Of a DNA stretch of 32,000 bases, positions 1,421-28,032 are shown one piece after another. This DNA is from Geotalea daltonii FRC-32 (GTDB lineage: Bacteria; Desulfobacterota; Desulfuromonadia; Geobacterales; Geobacteraceae). Every line of letters starts with the position of its first letter. Position 1 is the first letter of the stretch. The DNA lies in contig NC_011979.1 in the NCBI RefSeq assembly GCF_000022265.1, forward strand, positions 90,001 through 122,000, read 5' to 3'. The position numbers and the translations under genes were made by a program. The notes beneath the pieces are model-generated. The model ran no database searches. It had not been told where the DNA came from and worked only from the letters and a program-made list of their open reading frames with translations.

Positions 1421-4400
1421 CTACTTCAGCGTAATGTCACTGACGGTTAGTGTCCCGCTCTTGATGGTCAACACCGGGATGATTGCCGTTCCTGTAAGCG
1501 TAGTGAAGGATGAATCATACCCCCCCTGCAAGGTGAGGGAAACGGGCCTGTCCATTACCAGCGACTGGCCGAGGTTGAGATCCCGTGCCTTGATGATGCT
1601 CCCGTCCGGTGAGTCGGTAAGGGCTTCCTGGATATATGCGTAGCACGCGGAGGATACCATCGACCCGCATCCGTAATAGTAGGCATTGACCGAACGGTCT
1701 TCGCTCATTGTGAGCGTGCAGGTGGTGCCGTTGCTGCTGCAGGCGCCGCTCCAAAAACCGAAGTAGGAGGTGGCGCCGGGAGAGGCGGTGAGGGTTACTA
1801 CGGTGTCTACGCCGTATGTCTGAGTACAGCCGCCGGAGGTGCAGGAGATGTCGGGGGAGGGCGAAGAATGGACATTGCCAATCGTGAGGGGGAAGTTGAG
1901 GCTCAGTACGGCGCTCGTCCTGGTGAAGGTCGCTGTAGCATTCTTTACCGCATCCATGACGACGGTACAGCTGCCCGTGCCGCTGCAGGCACCTGACCAG
2001 CCGGTGAAAGCGAAACCCTTGGCGGGGGTCGCAGAGAGGGTGACGGTCGTGCCGCTGTTGTACGTTCCGCTGCACGTCCCGGTAGAGCAGTTGATGTCAG
2101 GGGTTGGCGTGGAATGGACGGTGCCGCTGCCGGAAATTGTTACGTCCAGCGAATATGTGGGGACAAAGGTCGCGGTGACGGCGCATAACTGGTTTGTCGT
2201 TATTACGCAGGAGCCGCCGCCGCTGCAGGCACCCGACCAGCCGGTAAAGGCGTAACCGGGGGCGGGGGTGGCACTGAGGGTGACGGTGGTGACGCTATTG
2301 AATGTCTGACTGCAGGTGCCGATTGAGCAGGCAATGTCGGGTCCAGGCGAGGAGTGCACGCTGCCGTTCCCCCATATGGTGACGCTCAGGATATACGAAG
2401 GAATGAAGGTGGCGGTAACCATGCGCGGTTGGTCCATCGTTACCGAACATGCTCCAAAACCGCTGCAGGCACCGGTCCAGCCGCCGAAGCCGGAGTCAGT
2501 GCCGGGGGAGGCGGTCAGGGTTACAACGGTGTTGCGGGTATACGACTGGCTGCAGGTGCCGCCGGAACAATTTAGGTCGGGGGAGGGTGAGGAATTGACG
2601 GTGCCGTTGCCGACCACGGTAACTCCAAGGGGCTGTGACGGCTCGTTCGCATCATAAACCATAAAGCTGGCGGTTTTAACTGCGTTCCAGCTCCCCTCCT
2701 TACGGCCGCTAAAATCGCGGGCCAGGAAGGAGATGGTGTAATTCCCGAGGGTCGTGGGGGTCCAGTGCAGGGTGCCGGTCCCGTTGCCGTTGTCGGTAAA
2801 TGTGGCCCCTTCGGGAAGTGCTGTTGCGGCGTCGGGCCAGGTCCCCCCGACGGCTGAAATATCCACTTTGTCCCCTTCGGGATCGGCGGCGGTCATCGTC
2901 AGCGAAAAGAGGGAGTTCAGTGCGACCGCCGTATCGCTCACCCCTCCGACTGTGGGAACGTCGTTGCGCACCATGACGAGCGGGTCCGCCCACCACTGGA
3001 CATGTCTTGTCCCAAAGCTCGGCCACATATTGTTGGTCGCCCCGGCGACGTAGTTGCTCGCGTAGAACGAGGTGGTGGCGGTAGCAATGTCGTAGGAGTA
3101 GAGATTTAATTTGGTCTCCCCGGTCTCGGAGCCGAAGGCGCTGAAAATGATGCTCGTCCCGTCAGTGGCATATGAGTATGGATGGGACGCATCGGTAACG
3201 TGGGTCTCCTGCTTCGTGATCTTGTTGAAGACATACATCGGGTACGTGAGGTTAAATTCGTTCTCCTCGGTCCAGACCACCACCCCTGAACCATTAAGGG
3301 CCTGTCTCACCGATCCGGCACCTCCCCCAACGACAGTCTTCACCACCTCGTTGACCCCTGTGCCCAGGTCGGTGAGGTTGATGGTGACGTCGTTGTTGCT
3401 TCCTCCCGGATACCACATGTTGGTGACCACGCTGTTGTCCTTCAGGTACACCCCCGACTGGGAAGGATCTCCCTGGGGCATGGCGTATTCCTGGGACAGG
3501 GTGTGAGTGTTCACATCGTAGACGTAGACCAGCAATCCATAGAATGCGGCGCGCCCCTGGTTGAGGAGAATCTTGCCGTTATCATAGGAAAGGATCGGGT
3601 AGAAAAAAGAATCCTCCACGACCAGTTCCCCTGTGGGGGAGATGGATCCCACACTCGTCTTGCCGTAGCTGTAATTCGTTTCGTACCAGACGATCTTGCC
3701 CCCGGTGAGGAAAATTTGATCGATCCACGCCCCTGTCTTCGTCGGGTCGGGGTAGATGGTGATGAGCCTGTTCGTGGCCCCGTCGTACACCTTGCCGATG
3801 TCGCGCTTCGTGCCGCTCTCCTGCTGCTGCGGTTCCGTTTCGATCCAGGAGAACCTGTCCCCCTCCGACTGAGGACCCCTCTTGCCGAGCTGACCCGTCG
3901 CCAGGATGTAAAACTTCGGGTCCTCCTTGAAAAAGAGGATCTCCTTCACGTCGGTGAACACCTCATTATCCGTAGTCGTCACTTCGAGCTTGAGGAGGTA
4001 ACTCTTCCCTGCCTGGAACAGCTCCGTGCTGAAGGTGGCCAGTACGCCTTCCGTTACCGCCTCGGTGGATTCCGATCCGAGGGGCTGCCATGAGCCAACG
4101 GTGGGGGTGTACGGGGTCTGCCCGAGGACCTTGTCGATGGGGGCGTAGAAGAGACGATACCCGGCGAACTTCGTGCCGTAGGCGTCTCCTTGTACGGTGA
4201 CGGTTCCCGGCTTGGTTACGTTGACCGACTTCATCGGTGAGGTGATCCGCACCCGCGGCACCGAGGTGACCGCCACCGCTTTTTTCGCGTTCAGGCGTCC
4301 TGTGCCGCTCAACAGGTCAAAGCCTGTGGATTCCATATCGTCAGCAGATACCCGCAGTGCCTGTGAAACATCGTCGGGGGTGAAGGTCGGATGCGCCGCC

Positions 4401-5923
4401 AGCACAAGGGCAGCGACACCCGAAGCGTTGGGGGCCGCCATGGAGGTGCCCCTGGCGCGGTAATAGTACGTGTCGACGATGCAGAGCCCGTCCTTATACA
4501 GGTCGGTGGAACCTGCCCTGAGGGAAAGGATGTTTCGCCCGATACGGTTTGAGGAAGTATCGTCGCTGCCGCCTCCCGGCGCCGCCACGTCAATGAGAGG
4601 GCCAAGGTTGCTGAAATAGCTCCGCGAATCCACTTCGGAGCTCGCCGCGACGGTAATCACGTTGTTCGACTGGTTCTGCGGCGAGTAGAGGGTGACATCT
4701 GCCTGGCTGTTTCCGGCGGCAAAGACGACGACGGCGCCGAGACCCCGGGCGTAGGCCACTGCATCCTCGGCAACGGCATTGGAGCTGCACGGACTGCTGC
4801 ACCCCCAGCTGTTGTTGATGACCTCGGCCCCGTTATACGCCGCGTATTTGATTGCCGCGGCAAGCCCTGCGGAACTACCGCTCCCCGTGTCGCTCAACCC
4901 CTTTACCGCCATGATCTTTGCCAGCGGTGCCACACCTACGATCCCCGTATTGTTGTCCCCCACCGCGGCGATCGTCCCAGAAACGTGGGTACCGTGACCG
5001 TGGCCGTCCATGGGATCGTTGTCGTTGTTATAAAAGTCCCACCCACGCACGTCGTCCACATAGCCGTTGCCGTCGTCGTCGATGCCGTTGCCCGGGATTT
5101 CTCTGCTGTTGGTCCAGATGTTCGTTGCCAGGTCCACATGGTTGTAATCGACCCCTGAATCAACGACGGCGACGACGATCCCCGCTCCCTTGGTCACATC
5201 CCACGCATCGGCCATCTGCATCTTCTTCAGTCCCCAGAGATCGTCATATCCCTGCCCCCAGCTGCTGAATGAGGCATAGAAAGGATCGTTGGGGATCCAT
5301 TGGGCTTCCATTCGGAAGTTCGGTTGGCAGTAGGCGATGCTCGGATCACGGGAATAGGCGGCGCACGCCACGTTCACGTCCGTCTCAGGGTCGACCTCGA
5401 CACGATATATGGAGCCCAGGTAGGGAAGGTCAGGGCCAGGAGCACCCGGCGGCAATCCCTTCTTTTTCAGCCGCTCTTCCCGAAGTGCCGCAACGTCCTT
5501 CCTGAACTTCTCCCGTTGCCGGCGGTGCCGGAGTTCCGCCGCCCCTGCATCCATCCGTCCGGAAGCGTTTAACGCGGGGGCCTCGCCAAAGACCCTGTGC
5601 ATGGCCTTTACCTTGTACCGACTGTTTAGCCTATCCAGGTTGCCGTCCCCGGTGACGGGGGCGAACGGCTGTCCCCCCTTCACCAGGTCGGCGGCGACCG
5701 CACCGACCGATGCGTCATCCCTGAACTTCAATATCAGCTCACCCTGCAGATGGTCCTGTCTTGGCTGGTTGTCGGGGAAGAGCAGGAAGGGGGCCCTCCC
5801 CCGTGTTGCCTGCACGGGAGCATCCTCCAGAGTTAAAGCAGAGCTTGTGGCGGGAAAAGCAATGAAGGAGGCAACAATGGCTGCTACGAAAAAGACTTGA
5901 GGAAGAATGCTATCGGGGCGCAT
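1421..5923 (-). CDS. secreted multidomain S8 (subtilisin-family) serine peptidase, 1500 aa
   Basis: Signal peptide MRPDSILPQVFFVAAIVASFIAFPATSSA. I9-like propeptide. Catalytic triad motifs VVDSGVDYNH, HGHGTHVSG and GTSMAAPNASG. After these come a long beta-rich region, an Ig-like segment (LHWTPTTLGNYTISFLARD), four ~80-aa Cys-containing InlB-B-type repeats (GNGTV.S.P..I.C....C...Y....V.L.A.P..G..F.GWSGACSG...C.V.M) and an 84-aa tail. SD GGAG lies before the ATG. Confidence 0.9.
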   Translation of the reverse strand: MRPDSILPQVFFVAAIVASFIAFPATSSALTLEDAPVQATRGRAPFLLFPDNQPRQDHLQGELILKFRDDASVGAVAADLVKGGQPFAPVTGDGNLDRLNSRYKVKAMHRVFGEAPALNASGRMDAGAAELRHRRQREKFRKDVAALREERLKKKGLPPGAPGPDLPYLGSIYRVEVDPETDVNVACAAYSRDPSIAYCQPNFRMEAQWIPNDPFYASFSSWGQGYDDLWGLKKMQMADAWDVTKGAGIVVAVVDSGVDYNHVDLATNIWTNSREIPGNGIDDDGNGYVDDVRGWDFYNNDNDPMDGHGHGTHVSGTIAAVGDNNTGIVGVAPLAKIMAVKGLSDTGSGSSAGLAAAIKYAAYNGAEVINNSWGCSSPCSSNAVAEDAVAYARGLGAVVVFAAGNSQADVTLYSPQNQSNNVITVAASSEVDSRSYFSNLGPLIDVAAPGGGSDDTSSNRIGRNILSLRAGSTDLYKDGLCIVDTYYYRARGTSMAAPNASGVAALVLAAHPTFTPDDVSQALRVSADDMESTGFDLLSGTGRLNAKKAVAVTSVPRVRITSPMKSVNVTKPGTVTVQGDAYGTKFAGYRLFYAPIDKVLGQTPYTPTVGSWQPLGSESTEAVTEGVLATFSTELFQAGKSYLLKLEVTTTDNEVFTDVKEILFFKEDPKFYILATGQLGKRGPQSEGDRFSWIETEPQQQESGTKRDIGKVYDGATNRLITIYPDPTKTGAWIDQIFLTGGKIVWYETNYSYGKTSVGSISPTGELVVEDSFFYPILSYDNGKILLNQGRAAFYGLLVYVYDVNTHTLSQEYAMPQGDPSQSGVYLKDNSVVTNMWYPGGSNNDVTINLTDLGTGVNEVVKTVVGGGAGSVRQALNGSGVVVWTEENEFNLTYPMYVFNKITKQETHVTDASHPYSYATDGTSIIFSAFGSETGETKLNLYSYDIATATTSFYASNYVAGATNNMWPSFGTRHVQWWADPLVMVRNDVPTVGGVSDTAVALNSLFSLTMTAADPEGDKVDISAVGGTWPDAATALPEGATFTDNGNGTGTLHWTPTTLGNYTISFLARDFSGRKEGSWNAVKTASFMVYDANEPSQPLGVTVVGNGTVNSSPSPDLNCSGGTCSQSYTRNTVVTLTASPGTDSGFGGWTGACSGFGACSVTMDQPRMVTATFIPSYILSVTIWGNGSVHSSPGPDIACSIGTCSQTFNSVTTVTLSATPAPGYAFTGWSGACSGGGSCVITTNQLCAVTATFVPTYSLDVTISGSGTVHSTPTPDINCSTGTCSGTYNSGTTVTLSATPAKGFAFTGWSGACSGTGSCTVVMDAVKNATATFTRTSAVLSLNFPLTIGNVHSSPSPDISCTSGGCTQTYGVDTVVTLTASPGATSYFGFWSGACSSNGTTCTLTMSEDRSVNAYYYGCGSMVSSACYAYIQEALTDSPDGSIIKARDLNLGQSLVMDRPVSLTLQGGYDSSFTTLTGTAIIPVLTIKSGTLTVSDITLK
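1676..2644 (-). repeat. four tandem ~240-bp coding repeats (divergent InlB B-repeat-like domains) inside the S8 protease gene
   Basis: The DNA motif CGCTGCAGGCACC(T/C/G)G(A/T)CCAGCC recurs at exactly 1981, 2221 and 2461 (240-nt period, 80 codons). A fourth, more divergent unit lies near 1741. The protein repeats align over their full length. Confidence 0.8.
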
Positions 5924-6114
5924 GTCATCTCCTTACAGTGAAGATAATGAAATATCTGGGCTATTTAACGGGGCAAGGCTGCCAGGTGGAGGGGGCATAA
6001 ATCTTATTCGCTGTATCAGCCACGGCGATTTCGCCAGCAATCTTCCCTATTCTCAGGGTCCGGTTCACATCCGAGTGCCTCGAGTTGGAAGTAGGGAGGG
6101 GAAGCTGAAGGATC

Positions 6115-6187
6115 TGTTGTGCATTTATTGTATATGTACCAGTCATAAAATGTAAATAATTCTTTAATTGTGAGGTAAGGTGGGGTG
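6115..6187. repeat. copy B of ~73-bp imperfect direct repeat (partner at 1298-1370)
   Basis: Same cores in the same order as copy A. It abuts the stop codon of the Fic gene (6190) and lies about 190 nt upstream of the S8 protease start. Confidence 0.6.
6127..6156 (-). promoter_or_regulatory. candidate sigma-70 promoter for S8 protease gene (inside repeat copy B)
   Basis: Minus strand: TTTACA (6156-6151), 18 nt spacer, TACAAT (6132-6127). Sequence-pattern call only. Confidence 0.35.
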
Positions 6188-6189
6188 TA

Positions 6190-7740
6190 CTATCTCTTCA
6201 ACCCAGGCAGATTGGCACTTTCCGTCATTGATTCGTAGATGAACTGGGCGAACGGTTTTAAATCACCACGAGAAGTAGCTGCATCGAGAGCAGTCATATA
6301 TTCCTTTCGTCTTTCCACATTTAGTACTGTCCATGGGAAGCCTCCGGATGCAAACATCACATTCATCAAGAACCGGCCAAGCCTACCATTTCCGTCCATG
6401 TAAGGATGGATATAAACGAAAATAAAGTGACCTAGAACTGCACGAACCGCGGCACTTGCTTCAGATTTCAGCAGGTCGCAAAGTTCGGGCATCATCTCCC
6501 GCACAGCTTCTTTGGAAGGAGGTACATGCGCCGCATTCTTTATATAAACCGGATAATTTCTATATCCTGCCAAATCCGCCGGCCGAAGTAACCCGGCTGT
6601 GACACTGGGTTCCCATAGCTTTCGATACCATGTGGCGTGATCCACCCGGTAGGCTTCACCTGGATTAACACCAGAAAATATTTTTCTTATTGTTTCTTTG
6701 ACCTCATTGTGCGCAAGCCAGTATCCCCGAGCAGCCATAGCGTTTTTAGCTTCCGAATCGGAGGCATTGACCTCAGGTCTCCAGTCGCCATTTGCAACCC
6801 GAAGTATAAGGTCATCGGAGACGCGATACCCTTCGATGGAGAGTGAATGATACGCATCATTCTTATATATGATCTCTAGATTTTCCATGAACTTCTCGAT
6901 GCTTGCAGGAGGGCCTGGCTCTTTAGGGAAAGTGGTTAAAACAGTATCGCGCATTTCTTTCCACATTAAGCGTATTCGAAGCACATAGGGAGATTGAGCT
7001 CTTTCAAACTTCAGCTCAGGAGTGACAACTGAAAATGGGTTGGTTTCTGCAACTGTATATCCTGCAGCACGTAATGTATTTATTAGCTCTTCTCCTGATT
7101 CTTCTCTCCCTATTACGCGGAGAGCTCCTGCGAGACGGCCGGCTATAGAGCTATGTCCCCCCTCCAAAAGATCACCAAATAGCTCCGATGGGTCAAGCTG
7201 ATGTAGAGCGATTTGGGCATCCCGTGGGAAATTTTTAAAAAACGCTTCAGATACACGGATGAGTGCGAGGGTAAGTGGCATTACACGAATGCCGCCAATT
7301 ATCTGCTTCCTCTGCTCAGGCCATTCCTCGTTTTTACGGTAATCAAGTATCGAACATCCTGCTGGTAACTGGATCACGCCATTGGTGGCTTTAGGCGAAT
7401 AAATGGTTACCTGATTGGGAGTTATGGTATTTCCTGCGTGTAACAATATTGAGTATTCAGGGGAAGCATGCCATTTATCTCCAAATCGGTCATCGCAGTA
7501 CTCCCTGATGAAGTCTTTCGCAACTGCATACCATGATGTTGTATCTCCCGGATCTTCATCCGGACGAGAAGGCATATACCACCCTCTAATTATCTGCCTC
7601 AAGAAACCGTTTTTGAGGAGTGCTTCCCGTTGCAACCGCGTTAAATCACCTGTTTTGATGACAGTTTTGCCCGAATCTTGCAGCTTCTTTAACGCCTTAA
7701 GCGCTTCAGCGAGTTGTCGTTGTGCAGGACTTACTTTCAC
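6190..7740 (-). CDS. fic: Fic-domain protein (AMPylase family) with AbiEi-like N-terminal region, 516 aa
   Basis: Fic core HPYMDGNGRLGR. An upstream intramolecular inhibitory motif SLSIEG matches (S/T)xxxE(G/N), indicating class II. The N-terminus GKTVIKTGDLTRLQREALLKNGFLRQIIRGWYMP and SPEYSILLHAGNTITPNQVTIYSP resemble the AbiEi wHTH and following domain. GTG start with GAGGA 4 nt upstream. The gene and its flanks are visibly AT-richer than the neighbours. Confidence 0.85.
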   Translation of the reverse strand: MKVSPAQRQLAEALKALKKLQDSGKTVIKTGDLTRLQREALLKNGFLRQIIRGWYMPSRPDEDPGDTTSWYAVAKDFIREYCDDRFGDKWHASPEYSILLHAGNTITPNQVTIYSPKATNGVIQLPAGCSILDYRKNEEWPEQRKQIIGGIRVMPLTLALIRVSEAFFKNFPRDAQIALHQLDPSELFGDLLEGGHSSIAGRLAGALRVIGREESGEELINTLRAAGYTVAETNPFSVVTPELKFERAQSPYVLRIRLMWKEMRDTVLTTFPKEPGPPASIEKFMENLEIIYKNDAYHSLSIEGYRVSDDLILRVANGDWRPEVNASDSEAKNAMAARGYWLAHNEVKETIRKIFSGVNPGEAYRVDHATWYRKLWEPSVTAGLLRPADLAGYRNYPVYIKNAAHVPPSKEAVREMMPELCDLLKSEASAAVRAVLGHFIFVYIHPYMDGNGRLGRFLMNVMFASGGFPWTVLNVERRKEYMTALDAATSRGDLKPFAQFIYESMTESANLPGLKR

Positions 7741-7912
7741 TTGTTCCTCGGGGTCTTTCCGGTTTGCATACTTGAGATAAAGAAAATATTATCAAAAAAT
7801 ATGGATACATGTTGTAATAAAAATATGATTTCATGTAAAGATAAAAATATGGTTTGATGACATGCCAATTATATGAAATGATGCTCAGTGGCGGCGGAGC
7901 CTTGACAGCCAA
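7706..7912 (-). CDS. hypothetical 68-codon ORF with Tyr/Phe-rich octad repeats (doubtful)
   Basis: TTG start 6 nt after GGAGG (7923-7919). It stays open through a very AT-rich stretch. The 24-bp DNA repeats translate in frame as KPYFYLYM/KSYFYYNM/YPYFLIIF. It overlaps the Fic start by 35 nt in another frame. Confidence 0.2.
   Translation of the reverse strand: MAVKAPPPLSIISYNWHVIKPYFYLYMKSYFYYNMYPYFLIIFSLSQVCKPERPRGTSESKSCTTTTR
7795..7883. promoter_or_regulatory. three 24-bp-phased AT-rich direct repeats plus one inverted copy upstream of the Fic gene
   Basis: AAAAATATG(G/A)(A/T)T..CATG units occur with AATATG at 7798, 7822 and 7846. ATGAAATGAT at 7873-7882 matches the reverse complement of ATGATTTCAT (7825-7834) at 9 of 10 positions. 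Confidence 0.4.
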
Positions 7913-8120
7913 TTGCTACCTCCTTATCCCTTTGGACTGTCGTTTCACCGTCATACAGCACCACTCCGGTCGTCTGATTGCAAATATCGGTGTTGCCGCT
8001 CTTTAGTTTACGCATAGATAGCCAGCTTCTTGCGGATTCACTTTATCGTGGATTTGCAAGAAATTGAGTCTCAGCCTGTATTCCGGTGCAAACACAAATT
8101 TACCCATAAATACCCAACTT

Positions 8121-11100
8121 TTAGCCACCCAGCGCCGTCAGCGCTATCTCCTTCAACCCCTTCAGATCCAGCTTACCGCTACCCAGCATGGGCAGGTCCT
8201 CCACCGCCACATAGCAATCACGCCCCGGTTTCCACAGGTTGGGAATGTTGCTTTCGGCCAGCAGCCGGTGCAGGGTTTCCCCGTCAGCCGCATCCTTGGC
8301 ATAGACCACTACCAGTTTCTCCCCCTTCTTTTCGTCTGGCACGGCGGTTACCGCCAGCACCTGGGTCTGCCCGAGGCGGCCGTGCAGCTCATCCTCCACC
8401 ACGCCGTGGGGGACCATCTCGCCGCCAATTTTGCTGAAGCGGCTCATGCGGTCGGTGATGCGGATGAAGCCGTCATCGTCCATGATGCCGATGTCGCCGG
8501 TGACGTACCAGCCGTCCTTCACCACCTGGGCAGTCTTGTCCGGCTGTCCAAGGTAGCCGTGCATGACATTTGGCCCCTTGACCAGGATCAGTCCCGGCTC
8601 GCCCGGCTTCAAGGCAGTCCCGCTGTCCGGATCGACTACGCGGATGGCGACACCGGGGATGGGATGGCCGACGCTCCCCTCCTTGGAGCCATGCTGGGCA
8701 ACGCCGTCTATCTTCACATCGGGGAGGCTGAGGGTGATGACCGGGGAGAGCTCCGTTGCCCCATATCCCTCCAAAGGACGGATGCCGAAGCGCTCTTCGA
8801 AGGAATCGGCCACCTTGGCTTTCAATTTCTCAGCGCCGGTAATGACCAGGCGCAGGGAGGCAAAATCCTCTTTCTTTGCCCGGCGTAAGTAAGCGAGGAG
8901 AAAGGTGGGGGTGGCGATGAGCAGGGATGAGCGGTGTTCCCGGACCACCTGGGCGATCTTTTCACCATCCATGGGATTGGGATGGTAGGCGGCGGAAAAG
9001 CCGCTGAGGAGCGGCAGCCATAGGGTGCCGGTGAAGCCCAGGGAGTGGAAGAAGGGGAGGGCCGAGCAGATATTGTCGTTGAGGTTGACGCGAAAGACCA
9101 TGCGCAGTGCCTCGATGTTGGACATGATGTTGTGGTGGCTGAGCATGACCCCCTTTGGCTCGCCGGTGCTGCCGGAGGAGAAGATGACGGTGGCGGTCCG
9201 GTCGGCATGGAAGCCTTGGCGGTTGCAGAGCAGGCGAGGGGGCAGCAGCCGGCCGCGGATCAAGGCCTGCAGCTTTTCACCCTTGGAGATGGTGGGGGCG
9301 ATATCATCGAGAAAGAGCATGCCTTCCACTTGCGGCAGCGTGGGGAGCTTTTCCAGGAATGCTCGGGAGGTGACGATGGTGGTGATGCCGCACTGGGCGA
9401 TGGCCGACCTGAGGGATGCTTCGGCGGCGGTGTAGTTGAGATTGACCGGCACCCGCCCCAGCAGGGAGAGGGCCAGGTTGGCCAGCGCTCCGCCGGCCGA
9501 TGGCGGCAGCAGCAGCCCCACGTATTCTGCCTCGCCGATGCATTTATCAAGCTTGCCTGCCAGGGCCAGGGCACCTGCCAGGGTCTCGCCGTAGCTGAGC
9601 TCTTTGCCGGAGGTATCCGAAACGGCATGCCGTTTCCAGTTCTGCTTGGCGGCAAGGACGAAGTACTCGGCCAGTGGCTTGCGTTCGGCCTTGCGGGAAT
9701 TGAAATAGTCGCAGGAAAGCTCCATGACCGCCTGTCGTACCTCAAGGGCGGTGCTGGTTGCGGGCATGGGGGTGCCGAAGAGGATCGAGACCTGATAGGG
9801 TGCCAGGGCCGGCGGACGGGAGAGCAGCTTACCGTGGGCGTAACTGAGGATGCTTCCCCAGGCGCCGCCTATGTAAACCGGGATCACCGGATAGCCGCTG
9901 TCCTTGACAATCCGCTCGAAACCGCCGCGGAACTCACGCAGCATGCCGTTCCTGGTCAACGCACCTTCGGCGAAGATGCAGACCATGTAGCCGTCGTCAA
10001 GGGCGGTGCGCGCCCTCTTGATGAACTCCACCATCTCCTTCCTGCCGTCTTTCGAGGAGACCGGAATCACCCCCATCATCCGGAACAGCCAGCGCAACAG
10101 GGGAGTGTTGTAGATGCGCCGTTCCATGACGAAGCGGATGCGCCGCTGGCAGGTGGCGGAGAGCAACAGGGCATCCACCCAGGTGACGTGATTGGGTATG
10201 AGCAGCGCCGGTCCTTCCACCGGGAGGTTTTCAGCGCCGATAATACGCAGTCGGTAAAAAATGCGCATGGTGACCAGACCCATGAAGCGGAGCAGGAAGT
10301 CGGGGAGGAGCCAGAGGGTGATGATGGTCAGCGCCAGGGTCATGATGCCGATAACGCTGAAGCCCTGGGCCGCGGAAAGCTGCAACGGACCACTGAAGAG
10401 CCAGGTGAGGGCGGAGGCGAGGAGGATGCCGACCCAGTTGATGAAGCTGGAGGCGGCCAGTACTTCCCCCCTCTTGTCCGGCTCGGCCCGGAACTGGATG
10501 AAGGTCTGCAGCGGCAGGCTGAACAGCCCGGCGCTGATGCCGAAAAGCACGAGGATGAAAACGCAGGAGGCGATGGTGGAAGGGACGGTATGGAGCAGAA
10601 TGGCCGAGGCAGTCAGGCCGATGGCGCCGATGGGGACGATGCCGAATTCCACGTCGCGCCCGGAGAGTTTAGCCGCCAACAGTGAACCGCCGCCGATGCC
10701 AAGTGCCGCGGCAAGAAAGAGATAGCCGCTGCCCGCTTCGGAGAGTCCCAGCTGCTGCATGCCGTAGCTGATCAGGTTGAGCTGGGCGAAGGCGCCGACA
10801 AACATGAAATAGGCAAGGCCGATGATCGCCAGCATCAGGTCCCGGTCGTGGCGGACGGCCAGCACGGTGCGCAGGATTTCAGAGGGGAAGAGGGAGACCT
10901 TTCGGCTGGCGTCCTCCTGGCGGGTGGTCTCAAGTCGGGAGGCTGATGCCAGCCCTACCAGGGCCACCACAAGGCATACCAGCGCTGCAATCCAGAAACG
11001 TCCGCCGGTCGCCTGGGCCAGGACAGAGGCCAAGGCGGTGCCGACAATGATTGCCAGATAGGTAAATGACTCGATCAAGCCATTGACCCGGGACAAGTCG

Positions 11101-11501
11101 TCGCGGGAGGCTATTTCCGGGATGATGCCGTATTTGGCCGGTGCAAAGAAAGCACTGTGGGTTGCCATGAGGAAAACGACGGCATAGAGCCCCCATTCAA
11201 GCTTGAAGGCAAAAGCGACTACCGCTAAAAGGGTCACCGCCACCTCGATTGCCTTTATGATCTTGATCAGACGGGACTTGTGCAGACGGTCGGCCAGGCA
11301 ACCGGCGGGCGCGGAAAAGAGGAGGAAGGGGAGGACGAATGCAGCGCCGACACAGGCGGTGATGACTCCGGCCTTGGCAACGCCCTGGCTGCCGATCAGG
11401 AAAAAGATGATGAGCAGCTTGAGGATATTGTCGTTCAGGGCGCCGAGAAATTGGGTGGTGTTGAGCCAGAGCAGGGATTGGTGTTTTTCATGGGAAGTCA
11501 T
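8121..11501 (-). CDS. aas: tri-domain LplT-like MFS transporter / PlsC-type acyltransferase / acyl-ACP synthetase (Aas-type bifunctional enzyme fused to its transporter)
   Basis: N-terminal ~400 aa contain about 12 TM helices (MFS). HX4D acyltransferase motif NHVTWVD. AMP-binding signature IFSSGSTGEPKGV with downstream YGATE and GWYVTGD. SD GGAG before the ATG. Confidence 0.9.
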   Translation of the reverse strand: MTSHEKHQSLLWLNTTQFLGALNDNILKLLIIFFLIGSQGVAKAGVITACVGAAFVLPFLLFSAPAGCLADRLHKSRLIKIIKAIEVAVTLLAVVAFAFKLEWGLYAVVFLMATHSAFFAPAKYGIIPEIASRDDLSRVNGLIESFTYLAIIVGTALASVLAQATGGRFWIAALVCLVVALVGLASASRLETTRQEDASRKVSLFPSEILRTVLAVRHDRDLMLAIIGLAYFMFVGAFAQLNLISYGMQQLGLSEAGSGYLFLAAALGIGGGSLLAAKLSGRDVEFGIVPIGAIGLTASAILLHTVPSTIASCVFILVLFGISAGLFSLPLQTFIQFRAEPDKRGEVLAASSFINWVGILLASALTWLFSGPLQLSAAQGFSVIGIMTLALTIITLWLLPDFLLRFMGLVTMRIFYRLRIIGAENLPVEGPALLIPNHVTWVDALLLSATCQRRIRFVMERRIYNTPLLRWLFRMMGVIPVSSKDGRKEMVEFIKRARTALDDGYMVCIFAEGALTRNGMLREFRGGFERIVKDSGYPVIPVYIGGAWGSILSYAHGKLLSRPPALAPYQVSILFGTPMPATSTALEVRQAVMELSCDYFNSRKAERKPLAEYFVLAAKQNWKRHAVSDTSGKELSYGETLAGALALAGKLDKCIGEAEYVGLLLPPSAGGALANLALSLLGRVPVNLNYTAAEASLRSAIAQCGITTIVTSRAFLEKLPTLPQVEGMLFLDDIAPTISKGEKLQALIRGRLLPPRLLCNRQGFHADRTATVIFSSGSTGEPKGVMLSHHNIMSNIEALRMVFRVNLNDNICSALPFFHSLGFTGTLWLPLLSGFSAAYHPNPMDGEKIAQVVREHRSSLLIATPTFLLAYLRRAKKEDFASLRLVITGAEKLKAKVADSFEERFGIRPLEGYGATELSPVITLSLPDVKIDGVAQHGSKEGSVGHPIPGVAIRVVDPDSGTALKPGEPGLILVKGPNVMHGYLGQPDKTAQVVKDGWYVTGDIGIMDDDGFIRITDRMSRFSKIGGEMVPHGVVEDELHGRLGQTQVLAVTAVPDEKKGEKLVVVYAKDAADGETLHRLLAESNIPNLWKPGRDCYVAVEDLPMLGSGKLDLKGLKEIALTALGG

Positions 11502-17812: not shown

Positions 17813-18055
17813 ATGAGCGGAATTCGTTCTCCAAAAGAACTAGGGGAGGCACTTCGCCAGAAACGTAAGGCAAAGGGGTTGACACAGACGGCTGCAGGGA
17901 AGCCGGTTAACCTGGTGCAATCCAAAATATCGCAGATCGAAAACGGAACCCTTGCCATCGAGTTGAGTACCCTATTCCGACTTCTGGCGGCACTTGACCT
18001 GGAGCTGGTGGTACAGCCACGACAAAAGCATGAAATTAAAGGAGATGAGTGGTAA
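17813..18055 (+). CDS. hipB: HipB antitoxin (XRE-family HTH)
   Basis: 80 aa with HTH GLTQTAAGKPVNLVQSKISQIENG. Its stop overlaps the hipA start (TAATG). Confidence 0.85.
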   Translation: MSGIRSPKELGEALRQKRKAKGLTQTAAGKPVNLVQSKISQIENGTLAIELSTLFRLLAALDLELVVQPRQKHEIKGDEW

Positions 18056-19365
18056 TGCCCAGGAATCTAGCGGTTTACCTTAATGGGACCAGGGTAGGAA
18101 CTTTGACTCATGCTGCCAGAGTGCTTCAGTTCGTTTATGCTACCTCCTGGATTACCTCCAGCGTGAGCCGTCCCCTCTCACTTTCAATGCCCCTTCGGAG
18201 GGAGCCCTATTCAGGGGACGTCGTCGAGAATTACTTCGATAACTTGCTTCCTGACAATCAGGCGATCAGGAATCGTATCCAGACAAGATTTGGTTCTCCG
18301 TCAAACCGTGCATTTGATCTTTTGTGGCATACCGGCCGTGATTGCGTCGGTGCAGTTCAATTGATACCAGACGGTGCTGAGGCTGTAGATGTTAGAAGGG
18401 TAGAAGCTACTCCTGTATCGGACGTAAAGATAGCGGCCATCCTTAACAATTATCGGACAATGCCGTTGGGTATGCGACCGGATATTGACTTCCGAATCTC
18501 GCTGGCAGGCGCGCAGGAGAAGACGGCTTTGCTCCGGCTTGATGGCAGGTGGTGCATCCCCTCGGGGGTGACTCCAACAAGTCACATCCTGAAGCTTCCG
18601 ATCGGAACGATTGCCCATAGTGGTATGGACCTCACTGATAGTGTCGAGAATGAATGGCTTTGTCACCTCATTCTGAAGGAATTTGGTGTTCCGGTCGCCA
18701 ATGCGGAAATGGAAGTCTTTGAAGGGGTGAAGGCTCTTGTGGTAGAGCGATTCGACCGACGCTGGGCTGAGGATGGCTCGTGGTTGATTCGACTTCCACA
18801 AGAGGACATGTGCCAGGCGATGGGAGTGGCGCCCGCATTGAAATATGAGAGTGATGGAGGCCCCGGCATCCAGAAGATCATGACTTTTTTGCTCGGATCG
18901 GCAGACGCGCTGGGTGACCGGCGGGTATTTATGCAGGTGCAGGTACTTTTCTGGCTTCTGGCTGCAATCGATGGCCATGCCAAGAACTTCAGCATCTTTA
19001 TACGCCCGCGTGGCGAGTTTTCCCTAACCCCGATGTATGATGTGCTTTCCGCATATCCTCTTGTAGTAAAGGGACAACTAGATCCACACAGGTTGAGAAT
19101 GGCGATGGCTGTCAGTGGCAAAAACCGTCGATATGAGCACATCTCCATCCGCTACAGGCATTGGCTGGCAACGGCTCAGAGAAATAACGTATCGCCTGAG
19201 GAAATGGCGCTGATAATTGAGGAGCTCCTTGATCGGGTGGACAGCATAACCGCAGCTGTGGCTTCCAGATTGCCCCATAATTTCCCTGGAGATGTCGCTG
19301 AAAGCATCTTTGAAGGGATGCGGCAGTCTCGAGATAGGTTGGCGTCGCAGAAACACGAACGCTGA
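18055..19365 (+). CDS. hipA: HipA serine/threonine kinase toxin
   Basis: N-terminal LAVYLNG..VG, nucleotide-binding SLAGAQEKTAL and catalytic DGHAKNFS motifs. ATG 18055 is preferred over GTG 18049. Confidence 0.9.
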   Translation: MPRNLAVYLNGTRVGTLTHAARVLQFVYATSWITSSVSRPLSLSMPLRREPYSGDVVENYFDNLLPDNQAIRNRIQTRFGSPSNRAFDLLWHTGRDCVGAVQLIPDGAEAVDVRRVEATPVSDVKIAAILNNYRTMPLGMRPDIDFRISLAGAQEKTALLRLDGRWCIPSGVTPTSHILKLPIGTIAHSGMDLTDSVENEWLCHLILKEFGVPVANAEMEVFEGVKALVVERFDRRWAEDGSWLIRLPQEDMCQAMGVAPALKYESDGGPGIQKIMTFLLGSADALGDRRVFMQVQVLFWLLAAIDGHAKNFSIFIRPRGEFSLTPMYDVLSAYPLVVKGQLDPHRLRMAMAVSGKNRRYEHISIRYRHWLATAQRNNVSPEEMALIIEELLDRVDSITAAVASRLPHNFPGDVAESIFEGMRQSRDRLASQKHER

Positions 19366-26294: not shown

Positions 26295-26762
26295 TTATCT
26301 TATTGCCCGAATGGTGTCGTTAAAGGTATCTGTAATAAAAAGGCTTGCCCCGTCAGTAGTTATGCCGCTAGGGTACCCGAAACTTGCGGAAACGCCTACG
26401 CCATCTGTTGATCCTGTTGATCCACCTGCAAGTGTCGTTACTGCCCCACTGGCAATTACGATTTTCCGAATCGTATTATTTGAGTCCGCTACATACAGGT
26501 TCGCTCCATCCGTGGTTATATCAGAAATGCGTCCAAATAATGCTGCAGTCCCAATGCCGTCAGCCCAGCCGTATACTCCAGCAGTTCCGGCCAGAGTGGT
26601 AACTGTGCCGGTGGAAATTGATATTTTCCTGACCGTTTGTTGGTCTGCCACATAAAGGTACGTTCCGTCTGTCGTGAGGCCTGACAATTCAGTGAAACTT
26701 GCTGCGAGCCCAGTACCGTCGGCAGTGCCGACGGTACCTGCTTTGCCTGCCAGTGTGGTCAC
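26295..26762 (-). pseudogene. NHL-repeat beta-propeller fragment (about 3.5 blades, no signal peptide, no ATG)
   Basis: Repeats of VTTLAG.AG..G.ADG.G..A.F....GITTDG..LYVAD..N.IRKI. The frame opens right after a TGA, and the first residue of the track ORF is GTG in the middle of a repeat unit. It lies 45 nt downstream of the Fic gene stop. Confidence 0.5.
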
Positions 26763-26807: not shown

Positions 26808-27932
26808 CTATCGTGCCTTCTCCCCAAGCTTTAGCTCATACTTCACTGCCCGCCCCTGCCCCATTCGCGTGAGTATCCCCAACTGACTCAGTTGATCCAA
26901 CTCTCGAAATGCAGTGGCCCGGCTGCAGTGGGACATGGATGCATATTTTTGGGTAGTCAGGCCCCCCTCAAATCCACCAGGGCCTTCATCCAACAGGCGG
27001 TTGATGACCTTTTTCTGGCGTTCCGTCAGGGAATCCTGGGCATGGAGCCTCCAGAATGCCGACTTGGAAAAGACCCCGTTGAGGATCTCGTCCGAGCGCT
27101 CCAGAGCCCTGGCGAAGCAGGCCAGAAACCATTCCAGCCAGCCGGTAATGTCGCATTTCCCCCTTTGCGATCGCTCCAGGATGTCGTAATACCCTTCCCG
27201 CTCGGCCATGATCTGGGCGGAAAGACTATAGTAACGCACCCGCTGCTTGTCGTCCTGGGCCAGTGCCAGGTCGGTCAGGGCACGGGCAATGCGGCCGTTG
27301 CCGTCGTCGAATGGGTGAATGGTAACAAACCAGAAGTGGGCGACAGCGGCACGAATGATCCCTTCAACCTTGCCATTGCTCTCATCCCACCACGAGAGTA
27401 AACGCTTCATTTCCTGGTCAAGCCGGTCTGCAGGCGGCGCCTGGAAATGGATCTTCTCCCTCCCTACCGGCCCAGAAATTACCTGCCTCGGTTCGGCGCC
27501 TTCACGCCATCCGCCCACCTTGATGCGGTGCATGCCGGAATAGCCCGACGGGAAAAGGGCCGCCTGCCACCCCCATAGCCGGTCCCGAGTCAACGGCTGG
27601 TCGAAATTCAGCGTGGCGTCGAGAAGCACTGCAACAAGATCGTCGATGCGGCGGTCCACCGGCATGCCTGCAGACGGGAGACCGAGCCGTCGTGCCACAG
27701 AAGAGCGGACGGAACGGGCATCGAGAAGTTCTCCTTCGATGGCAGATGTCTTCAGCGTTTCCTCCACCAGAATTTCCGCCTGGGCCTGGGGATCGAGATT
27801 GAAGCCGAGCCCTGCAACTTTGCTGAAAAGCCTGCCCTGCCTCAGACGACATTCGCCCAGAGGGACAATGAGCCTTTCCGAGTCCCAGGTCAGCCGTGGC
27901 CAGTTTTTATGCTGCCAGATGTACTGATTCAT
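26808..27932 (-). CDS. fic: Fic family protein (DUF4172 N-terminus, class II, C-terminal wHTH; SoFic-like architecture)
   Basis: MNQYIWQHKNWPRLTWD (DUF4172-type start), inhibitory TSAIEG, Fic core HPFDDGNGRIAR and a C-terminal wHTH (CSRATAFRELDQLSQLGIL). ATG 27932 is preferred over TTG 27941. Confidence 0.9.
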   Translation of the reverse strand: MNQYIWQHKNWPRLTWDSERLIVPLGECRLRQGRLFSKVAGLGFNLDPQAQAEILVEETLKTSAIEGELLDARSVRSSVARRLGLPSAGMPVDRRIDDLVAVLLDATLNFDQPLTRDRLWGWQAALFPSGYSGMHRIKVGGWREGAEPRQVISGPVGREKIHFQAPPADRLDQEMKRLLSWWDESNGKVEGIIRAAVAHFWFVTIHPFDDGNGRIARALTDLALAQDDKQRVRYYSLSAQIMAEREGYYDILERSQRGKCDITGWLEWFLACFARALERSDEILNGVFSKSAFWRLHAQDSLTERQKKVINRLLDEGPGGFEGGLTTQKYASMSHCSRATAFRELDQLSQLGILTRMGQGRAVKYELKLGEKAR

Positions 27933-28032
27933 TCGCCTCAATAATCGCTTCAGATAATGAAATGATTATGTCTTATATCACATCATCAGACACAGGGCAA
28001 TGTCTTGAAGTAAGAGAGCGGTTCTGGACGAC

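Follow-up and report, generated by a model that had tools for sequence, protein, structure and literature searches.

A class II Fic protein with a predicted AbiEi-like N-terminal fold and an upstream array of 24-bp direct repeats in Geotalea daltonii FRC-32

Fic proteins of class II are defined in the literature by an inhibitory motif that lies in the same chain as the catalytic motif and N-terminal to it, and three of them carry a DNA-binding domain in that chain as well: CccR from Yersinia, a toxin acting on FtsZ by AMPylation and an autorepressor at its own promoter, CbFic2 from Coxiella, in which DNA binding switches AMPylation to deAMPylation, and SoFic from Shewanella, an anti-phage Fic enzyme. 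FICD (HYPE) also belongs to class II and requires its inhibitory glutamate for deAMPylation. A different DNA-binding module of two domains is known from AbiEi and Rv2827c (type IV AbiE, MenAT-related; 6Y8Q, 1ZEL), AbiEi being encoded beside the DUF1814 nucleotidyltransferase AbiEii. The present work concerns a gene at positions 6190-7740 of a stretch of 32,000 nucleotides from Geotalea daltonii FRC-32 (contig NC_011979.1), called hereafter the window, which had been described in an earlier note, made from the sequence alone, as a single-chain AbiEi-like/Fic fusion. Its product is shown below to carry a class II Fic domain behind an N-terminal half with the predicted fold of AbiEi, and its upstream region to contain an array of direct repeats shared by relatives from many phyla. 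The proteins of this kind are referred to as the AbiEi-fold Fic family.

The open reading frame (ORF) lies exactly where the earlier note had placed it and can be taken for a genuine gene because its full-length homologues are counted in thousands, all 8000 scored candidates falling within the E-value threshold. The best 120 of them show an identity of 56-81%, the top matches span 97-100% of the length, and across 36 relatives the chain is conserved along the entire length, the N-terminal half included. The GTG start, giving 516 aa, is preferred because of the alignment of homologues, the Shine-Dalgarno sequence in front of it (Table 1) and a near-identical strain that has TTG in its place. 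As publicly annotated (P0001, 461 aa, 100% identical), the gene begins at the internal Met56, so that the whole winged helix-turn-helix (wHTH) described below is missing (window 7575-7740); annotation pipelines may systematically truncate members of the family in this way where the true start is GTG or TTG. The AlphaFold model of the full-length protein reaches a predicted local distance difference test score (pLDDT) of 87.2 and a predicted template-modelling score (pTM) of 0.86, and the high pTM together with the ordered linker, containing an invariant NPF, suggests that the two halves may be rigidly coupled.

Concerning the C-terminal half, it is a class II, FICD-like Fic domain with the inhibitory E303 in the same chain. 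The Pfam family Fic, the single Pfam domain in the protein, matches residues 392-462 with 51 bits against a cutoff of 24 (E = 2.8e-13), and the catalytic motif HxFx(D/E)GNGRxxR is present with Y replacing F (HPYMDGNGRLGR), which agrees with the earlier note. The intramolecular inhibitory motif SLSIEG, recognized there too, is found 141 residues before H445, N-terminal to the Fic core; since S299xxxE303G304 precedes the catalytic motif in the same chain, the protein belongs to class II. In an alignment of 56 sequences, i.e. the query and 55 full-length representatives 32-55% identical to it, both motifs are retained in approximately 90%, the catalytic residues H445, N451, R453 and R456 being kept in 50, 53, 52 and 52 sequences, and the inhibitory residues S299, E303 and G304 in 55, 52 and 54, respectively. 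The family profile compared with the PDB matched human FICD (E = 8.7e-27) over residues 279-508, the inhibitory motif aligning with the FICD inhibitory-helix region, and Foldseek with the full-length model returned FICD (1.7e-8) as well as Caenorhabditis elegans Fic-1, BtFic (3cuc) and CdFic, all in agreement with the Fic fold. Weak matches to the Pfam VbhA-antitoxin model were seen in 15 of 36 family members. The PADLOC model of SoFic also matches (2.7e-25), its aligned positions 53-265 of 361 covering the Fic core only, and the NCBIfam SoFic model stays at 31 bits, below its cutoff of 550. Neither DUF4172 nor Fic_N was found by Pfam in the 516-aa protein, whose modelled chain finishes with the Fic helices at residue 509, leaving no C-terminal wHTH; because both elements are missing, the protein is not of the SoFic type. 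The N-terminal ~230 aa, with neither DUF4172/Fic_N nor tetratricopeptide repeats (TPR), are indeed not one of the usual Fic extensions, as the earlier note had remarked.

With regard to this N-terminal half, no model of Pfam, NCBIfam or PADLOC covers it, and a profile of residues 1-245 found no match among the PDB sequences. The AlphaFold model of residues 1-245 alone (pLDDT 88.5, pTM 0.82) was compared by Foldseek with 350,542 PDB chains, yielding exactly three matches at E ≤ 1e-3, all of them AbiEi chains—Streptococcus agalactiae AbiEi 6y8q_A (4.3e-5), Mycobacterium tuberculosis Rv2827c 1zel_A (1.8e-4) and 6y8q_D (8.6e-4)—with a probability of 1.00 and 228-257 aligned columns covering both subdomains. 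The next tier consists of nucleotidyltransferases (JHP933, ANT(2'')-Ia 5kqj, poly(A) polymerases and CCA-adding enzymes), the same second tier, including 5KQJ, that was published for the structural matches of AbiEi itself (Beck et al. 2020). The order of secondary-structure elements in the model of residues 1-228 is that of the published AbiEi fold, i.e. a wHTH, a helix, a row of β-strands and a six-helix bundle. Within the wHTH—in the models a helix 5-22, a strand 28-29, a helix 30-32, the recognition helix 35-43 and the wing strands 47-51 and 54-57—the topology H1-S1-H2-t-H3-S2-W1-S3 again corresponds to that of AbiEi, and R35 and R38 of the recognition helix are invariant in the alignments of homologues. 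Since the only PDB matches at E ≤ 1e-3 are AbiEi chains, the second tier is the same and the elements follow the same order, the models support a two-domain AbiEi/Rv2827c fold for residues 1-228, composed of the wHTH and a nucleotidyltransferase-like C-terminal domain (CTD) ending in the six-helix bundle. The earlier note had proposed the AbiEi likeness from two strings, GKTVIKTGDLTRLQREALLKNGFLRQIIRGWYMP (residues 24-57) and SPEYSILLHAGNTITPNQVTIYSP (residues 93-116); prediction of the structure and its comparison by Foldseek bear this out for the fold, whereas the sequence, matched by no AbiEi model, does not follow (see below).

The strongest feature of the locus, which had escaped the earlier note, is the array of four 24-bp direct repeats upstream of the gene, the core pattern of which, CATSWWWYCATAT, occurs four times in the 32 kb of the window, each time in the array. 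The 200 nt upstream of the gene were surveyed in 81 loci, made up of the window plus 80 relatives belonging to many phyla, and were found to contain recurrent 8- to 10-mers, such as CACAATAA in 28 loci and ATAACCTA in 24 (shuffle maximum 9), occurring as direct repeats on the gene strand at an exact spacing of 24 nt. Over positions -160..-1 the mean self-identity reaches 0.452 for a lag of 24 and 0.413 for a lag of 48, every other lag giving ~0.28; the controls for a lag of 24 amount to 0.279 (-420..-261; Mann-Whitney p = 2.5e-24) and 0.250 (within the ORF). For the individual loci, the lag-24 z exceeds 3 in 68/81 and 2 in 76/81, with 4.2 for the window, and two plasmid loci from a separate collection reproduce the array (z = 5.6 and 5.3). 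There are 3-6 units in 71/81 loci (three in 34, four in 30, five in 5 and six in 2), each made of a conserved core of ~14-16 bp, the majority version being approximately rACRCAATAAnC(T/G)A(A/G), and of a variable spacer, and the distance from the array to the start codon has a median of 24 nt. Where a strong sigma-70 match is present, the hexamers flank a repeat core in 16 of the 21 loci (binomial p = 7e-5), the -35 hexamer sitting in the spacer directly upstream of the core, so that the promoter straddles it; an example (L001) reads TTGACA, 17 nt with CACAATAATCTAGC, and TAGTAT. No terminator separates array and ORF in the window, and no Rfam match was obtained. The layout, with the array over the predicted promoter of the gene, suits a repressor operator and not a type III RNA antitoxin.

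Table 1 Features of the locus in the window (predicted elements are marked as such)
Feature	Position	Strand	Evidence or remark
AbiEi-fold/Fic fusion gene, 516 aa	6190..7740	(-)	GTG start at 7740, stop 6190-6192; ORF list, full-length homologues, AlphaFold model
wHTH, residues 1-60	7561..7740	(-)	Models, translation, invariant residues
AbiEi-CTD-like domain, residues 61-228 (predicted)	7057..7560	(-)	Helix 69-86, helix 94-101, β-strand row 110-153, six helices 156-225
Ordered linker, residues 229-250	6991..7056	(-)	Invariant N234-P235-F236 in alignments; pLDDT 80-91
FICD-like class II Fic domain, residues 251-516	6193..6990	(-)	Pfam, family profile vs PDB, Foldseek, PADLOC
Inhibitory-helix motif S299-L-S-I-E303-G304	6829..6846	(-)	Translation; fits (S/T)xxxE(G/N)
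Fic catalytic motif H445-PYMDGNGRLG-R456	6373..6408	(-)	Translation
Shine-Dalgarno GAGGA	7745..7749	(-)	4 nt ahead of GTG start
Four 24-bp direct repeats, predicted operator of the wHTH module	7789..7884	(-)	Repeat search, lag-24 z, unit layout
Repeat units	7861-7884, 7837-7860, 7813-7836, 7789-7812	(-)	Cores at 7871-7883, 7847-7859, 7823-7835, 7799-7811
Candidate promoter region	7768..7817	(-)	Two candidates
Candidate promoter P1	TTACAA 7812-7817, 18 nt, GATAAT 7788-7793	(-)	Straddles proximal repeat core
Candidate promoter P2	TTGATA 7790-7795, 16 nt, AAGTAT 7768-7773	(-)	Abuts array
AT-rich islet (gene, array, flanks)	5930..7905		Upstream boundary ~7890-7905; downstream boundary approximate, from GC content only
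Flanking gene, 1126-aa MFS transporter + acyltransferase + AMP-binding enzyme (Aas/LplT-like)	8121-11501	(-)	Unusually large fusion
Flanking gene, 1500-aa S8 subtilase with InlB-type B-repeats	1421-5923	(-)	Unusually large fusion

The array is also retained in a truncated copy of the gene (L169:2350-3150; protein P0138, 238 aa), which consists of the N-terminal domain only, stops inside the linker and has EQPHW instead of ExNPF; upstream of it there are three AAGCTAA cores with a spacing of 24 nt, belonging to three repeat units with the cores AATAAGCTAA, CATAAGCTAA and GAAAAGCTAA. This locus was considered as a split version with two genes, an idea that was rejected, the downstream gene being unrelated to Fic, and it looks like a truncation. 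A gene for the N-terminal domain followed by one for Fic was not found, and most of the short matches are contig-end fragments. In another locus (L170:4001-5365), the protein P0182 has pentapeptide repeats (~47-155) fused to an AbiEi-like N-terminal domain (175-403), without Fic; it adjoins hipBA, and the element carries a ResT/TelK protelomerase, SSB and a topoisomerase. The N-terminal domain may be a portable module, or the fusion in P0182 may be an artefact of gene calling.

The gene and the array lie in an AT-rich islet, as the earlier note had reported, with a GC content of 0.457 at 5930-8000 against 0.564 in the rest of the window. The GC at third codon positions (GC3) is 0.416 in the gene, 0.75 and 0.80 in the two flanking genes and 0.63-0.71 in the next five. 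The range of 0.63-0.80 covers six out of eight other genes with a measured GC3, from the amidohydrolase through the ADH, together with both flanking ones. The gene is compositionally foreign and, to judge by this composition, was acquired horizontally. Both flanking genes are unusually large fusions of ordinary kinds. An orthologue of the Aas-like one (71-84% identity) is present in ~30 relatives, next to the Fic gene in none of them; the near-identical strain L089 does carry the Fic gene beside it. Between the window and L089, the backbone differs at 12/4000 positions in the Aas-like gene and at 1/225 in 7906-8130, i.e. 0.3-0.4%, whereas the islet differs by ~5%, namely at 8/165 positions in the array and 5' untranslated region and at 24/471 in the ORF, 16 of the latter 24 at third codon positions; the break, in the comparison of L089:4424-5288 with 7270-8130 of the window, falls near 7890-7905, beside a 2-bp indel. 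Because of this difference in divergence, the array and the gene share a history apart from that of their flanks, and the comparison suggests either allelic replacement or a faster evolution of the islet. There is no convincing target-site duplication flanking the islet, all repeat pairs in 5850-8200 being short and imperfect, no tRNA in the window that could have served as an integration site, and no clean empty site, the S8 protease side not being syntenic in relatives.

The family was found in at least 591 species genomes of many phyla, covering the Desulfuromonadota, Gemmatimonadota, Alpha-, Beta- and Gammaproteobacteria, Bacteroidota, Acidobacteriota, Melainabacteria, Myxococcota, Nitrospirota and Verrucomicrobiota, and forms 1383 clusters at 50% identity. 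It occurs on 79 plasmids, 41 of them conjugative, and has no relatives in 50,697 phage records; in the records covered, its members bear no annotation other than 'Fic family protein', 'fido (protein-threonine AMPylation protein)' or 'hypothetical protein'. All-against-all clustering of the ±4 neighbours in the 81 loci revealed no conserved partner gene, the largest cluster comprising 6 loci in varying positions. The 150 annotated neighbours include AbiEii (four), HTH_3 (four), integrases (three) and AbiEi_1 (two), further transposases, RadC, HigB, McrBC, PD-Lambda-2 and PDC-S01. The defence-island enrichment which the earlier note had thought worth surveying is only moderate for mobile-element, toxin-antitoxin (TA) and defence genes. 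In Geobacter sp. SVR the gene resides in an island resembling an integrative and conjugative element (ICE), with DUF6094/ResIII, RadC, BilA/BilD and an integrase, in Geopsychrobacter (L002) in a cluster of hipBA and an orphan AbiEi, and on a conjugative plasmid of Shinella with trbI on one side and establishment-type genes on the other, while in one relative it is a solitary insertion between the genes for COX1 and COX2. Each of the four AbiEii genes near relatives is adjoined by its own AbiEi or antitoxin gene; the idea that a nearby AbiEii might use the N-terminal domain of the Fic protein as its antitoxin was rejected for this reason. In the window itself no AbiEii was detected among the 18 large ORFs scanned, as already stated in the earlier note.

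Some further observations were made on the neighbourhoods. A DUF6088 protein is encoded directly downstream of the family gene in two Sphingomonadaceae loci (at L074:11855-12532 and as the +1 neighbour in L075). Unrelated Fic genes are located a few genes away in two other loci, at L003:3935-5092 (Fic_N + Fic) and L016:5556-7166 (537 aa), which parallels the two Fic genes of the window: the second, unrelated one, at 26808-27941 (-), encodes 377 aa with DUF4172 + Fic, an architecture of the SoFic/CbFic2 type, and is followed on the same strand by an ORF of 155 aa at 26295-26762 (-) with no Pfam match. A small regulatory gene adjoining SoFic is reported in a 2025 paper. The window also contains a hipBA-like pair at 17813-19365 (+), in which an 80-aa helix-turn-helix ORF (17813-18055) overlaps the start of HipA (18049-19365), with a GC3 of 0.549, below that of its neighbours; HipA is also found near the family gene in the Geopsychrobacter locus L002 and near the pentapeptide protein of L170.

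When the locus is compared with the systems mentioned at the beginning, it has in common with AbiEi and Rv2827c the two-domain fold, a similar footprint per monomer as predicted from the repeats (units of 24 bp here, half-sites of 23 bp for AbiEi), repeats over the own, here predicted, promoter, and the occurrence on mobile elements and close to defence or TA genes. It differs from them in the lack of detectable sequence similarity in the N-terminal domain, in the arrangement of the repeats, direct and in 3-6 copies instead of inverted pairs, and in the covalent fusion to Fic in place of an AbiEii partner. With CccR, CbFic2 and SoFic it shares a class II Fic domain with the (S/T)xxxE(G/N) motif and, as predicted here, a DNA-binding domain in the same chain; those proteins, however, have a C-terminal wHTH of the DeoR type, whereas here the putative AbiEi-like DNA-binding module is N-terminal and composed of two domains, and their dimerisation domain DUF4172/Fic_N has no counterpart. 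The operators of CccR are palindromic, unlike the 24-bp direct-repeat arrays, and the Fic core is closer to the metazoan FICD than to SoFic. FICD gives the best match of residues 279-508 in both sequence and structure, including the inhibitory helix and the flap, but it has an N-terminal transmembrane anchor with TPR, BiP as its target, a control by dimerisation and no DNA-binding module. Arrays of ~20-bp direct repeats are known from plasmid Rep initiators (RepA, RepE, pi), whose winged-helix monomers bind them and autoregulate their own genes; in contrast to those, an origin context is missing here, since the gene stands alone on a chromosome in most loci, the array lies across the promoter of the gene itself, and the fold matches AbiEi and not the WH1-WH2 of Rep. 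A full-text search of a literature collection retrieved no description of an AbiEi-Fic fusion or of a direct-repeat operator at a Fic gene. The AbiEi-fold Fic family departs from the known kinds as a variant and is not a categorically new system.

Based on the above results, it appears probable that the gene is a mobile one-gene module encoding an autoregulated, self-inhibited Fic AMP-transferase. According to this explanation, monomers of the AbiEi-like module would bind the repeat cores head to tail and occlude the promoter within the array, repressing their own gene, as do AbiEi and Rv2827c from their operators and CccR from the promoter of its gene. By analogy with known class II enzymes, E303 would keep the Fic domain inactive or acting as a deAMPylase, and the occupancy of the DNA or the oligomerisation on it may set the balance between AMPylase and deAMPylase, as is suggested by FICD and by the DNA-regulated CbFic2. 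The released enzyme would AMPylate a conserved cellular protein and cause growth arrest, which would serve either the maintenance of the mobile element (addiction) or, as for SoFic, abortive defence; this toxin or defence role, drawn from analogy, is the least certain step of the model, and the fused TA or abortive-infection module proposed in the earlier note remains plausible. A more ambitious version, to which we attach little probability, sees in the protein a single-polypeptide TA/abortive-infection switch read out on DNA, the AbiEi-like half being both the cis 'antitoxin' of the Fic half and the sensor. The monomers lined up on the iteron-like array would then hold the Fic domain inhibited or deAMPylating and the gene repressed, while titration off the array or its disruption, for example by invading DNA, by element loss or a change in copy number, or by a phage factor, would release the AMPylase.

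Several results have to be weighed against the autoregulated Fic module. Hmmscan with the AbiEi models, named in the earlier note, was negative, those of Pfam giving no match for the query at E ≤ 10 or for 36 family members at E ≤ 1, and the AbiEi models of PADLOC do not match the query either. For the comparison by hhalign, two AbiEi alignments were used, seeded by the AbiEi_4 protein adjoining the Geopsychrobacter homologue (a seed matching 6y8q at 3.4e-12) and by the AbiEi_1/AbiEi_4 protein adjoining a Gemmatimonadota homologue; with a diverse alignment of the N-terminal domain, these gave a probability of 1.6% (AbiEi_4) and 2.6% (AbiEi_1), collinear and not significant, the sole alignment with AbiEi_4 pairing exactly the two strings quoted in the earlier note with the wHTH and the first CTD strand of AbiEi. 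A hidden Markov model of the domain searched against 497 neighbour proteins, true AbiEi among them, returned only noise, the true AbiEi not ranking above it. Since hmmscan was negative and the profile-profile comparison not significant, a membership of the AbiEi family at the sequence level (COG5340; AbiEi_1, AbiEi_3, AbiEi_4) is not supported. The Foldseek template-modelling (TM) scores to the AbiEi chains are modest as well (0.37-0.51); AbiEi and Rv2827c themselves are a 65-degree hinge apart, with 3.0-3.4 Å per domain (Beck et al. 2020). As for the upstream region, the direct repeats found here contrast with the inverted ones of AbiEi and Rv2827c, the core in the window departs from the majority consensus, its promoter is only weakly predictable (P1 and P2 each agree with 8/12 consensus positions), and the 3' half of the repeat core tracks sequence variants of the wHTH in a way that phylogeny confounds. 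Finally, ~10% of the representatives have a degenerate catalytic or inhibitory motif, and many loci lie among housekeeping genes, on account of which the enrichment of defence genes is modest.

That AbiEi went undetected by every sequence or profile method and that no TM-score exceeds 0.51 would suit an analogy instead of a true AbiEi likeness, i.e. a generic wHTH joined to an unrelated α/β domain, the N-terminal module recruiting the substrate or oligomerising and a host factor binding the repeats. This we hold for quite improbable, because the three matches at E ≤ 1e-3 among all the PDB chains are AbiEi with both subdomains aligned, the second-tier matches are those published for AbiEi, and apart from the array nothing is conserved together with the gene in phyla with widely differing host factors, the array staying with the N-terminal domain even in the copy that has lost Fic. 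The same copy can be cited for an explanation that is unlikely, yet deserves some weight: the protein could be mainly a transcription factor, whose AbiEi-like module represses its own and maybe other promoters, with Fic as a sensor or modulator, tuning the affinity for DNA by auto-AMPylation or nucleotide binding, for example, and with no role in toxicity, addiction or defence. A regulator would fit the conservation of the operator-like array, the recognition helix with its invariant residues, the many loci in housekeeping surroundings (one copy being inserted between COX1 and COX2), and the persistence of the ~10% of representatives that have lost a catalytic or inhibitory residue, and the PDB titles the SoFic-type structure 3eqx 'Fic domain containing transcriptional regulator'. 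On the other hand, the core motif of the window is confined to the gene's own promoter within 32 kb, giving no sign of a regulon, the patchy distribution by horizontal transfer, on plasmids and ICEs, and the foreign composition are atypical of a housekeeping regulator, and the conservation of the catalytic motif, the inhibitory glutamate and the target-docking flap across phyla points to selection on an enzymatic action against a substrate.

A very remote chance is left to the repeats acting as RNA, in the manner of a type III TA system in which the tandem-repeat transcript would neutralise the Fic toxin. Tandem direct repeats directly upstream of a toxin gene are the hallmark layout of ToxIN-type systems, and such an array does stand directly upstream of a putative toxin gene here, its gene-proximal repeats lying downstream of the predicted -10 in several loci, where they would be transcribed. 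Type III systems, however, are recognized by near-identical repeats, a terminator and an endoribonuclease. The conservation in the present arrays is limited to the 14-16 bp core with freely varying spacers, as for protein-binding sites and unlike structured RNA units that undergo processing; the sigma-70 hexamers are within the array, so that the distal repeats remain untranscribed; there is neither a terminator between array and ORF in the window nor an Rfam match; and the toxin candidate is a Fic enzyme, not an RNase, with a wHTH of its own, the array staying with the N-terminal domain when Fic is lost.

Fic enzymes and AbiE systems have both been studied intensively but separately, and the family described here joins the AbiEi fold and Fic in one chain. 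Its N-terminal half illustrates that a motif-level intuition on AbiEi can be right at the level of the fold where every sequence model fails. The 24-bp array provides a concrete candidate for the DNA ligand, which makes the model of the autoregulated Fic module directly testable, and the family offers a natural system for the question of whether the occupancy of DNA controls the AMPylase/deAMPylase switch of a class II Fic protein, addressed so far only for CbFic2. If the single-polypeptide switch were true, the AbiEi antitoxin fold would no longer be limited to DUF1814 toxins but would also serve a second class of nucleotidyl-transferring toxins, unrelated to the first, and the switch would represent a one-gene addiction or defence module of a new type.

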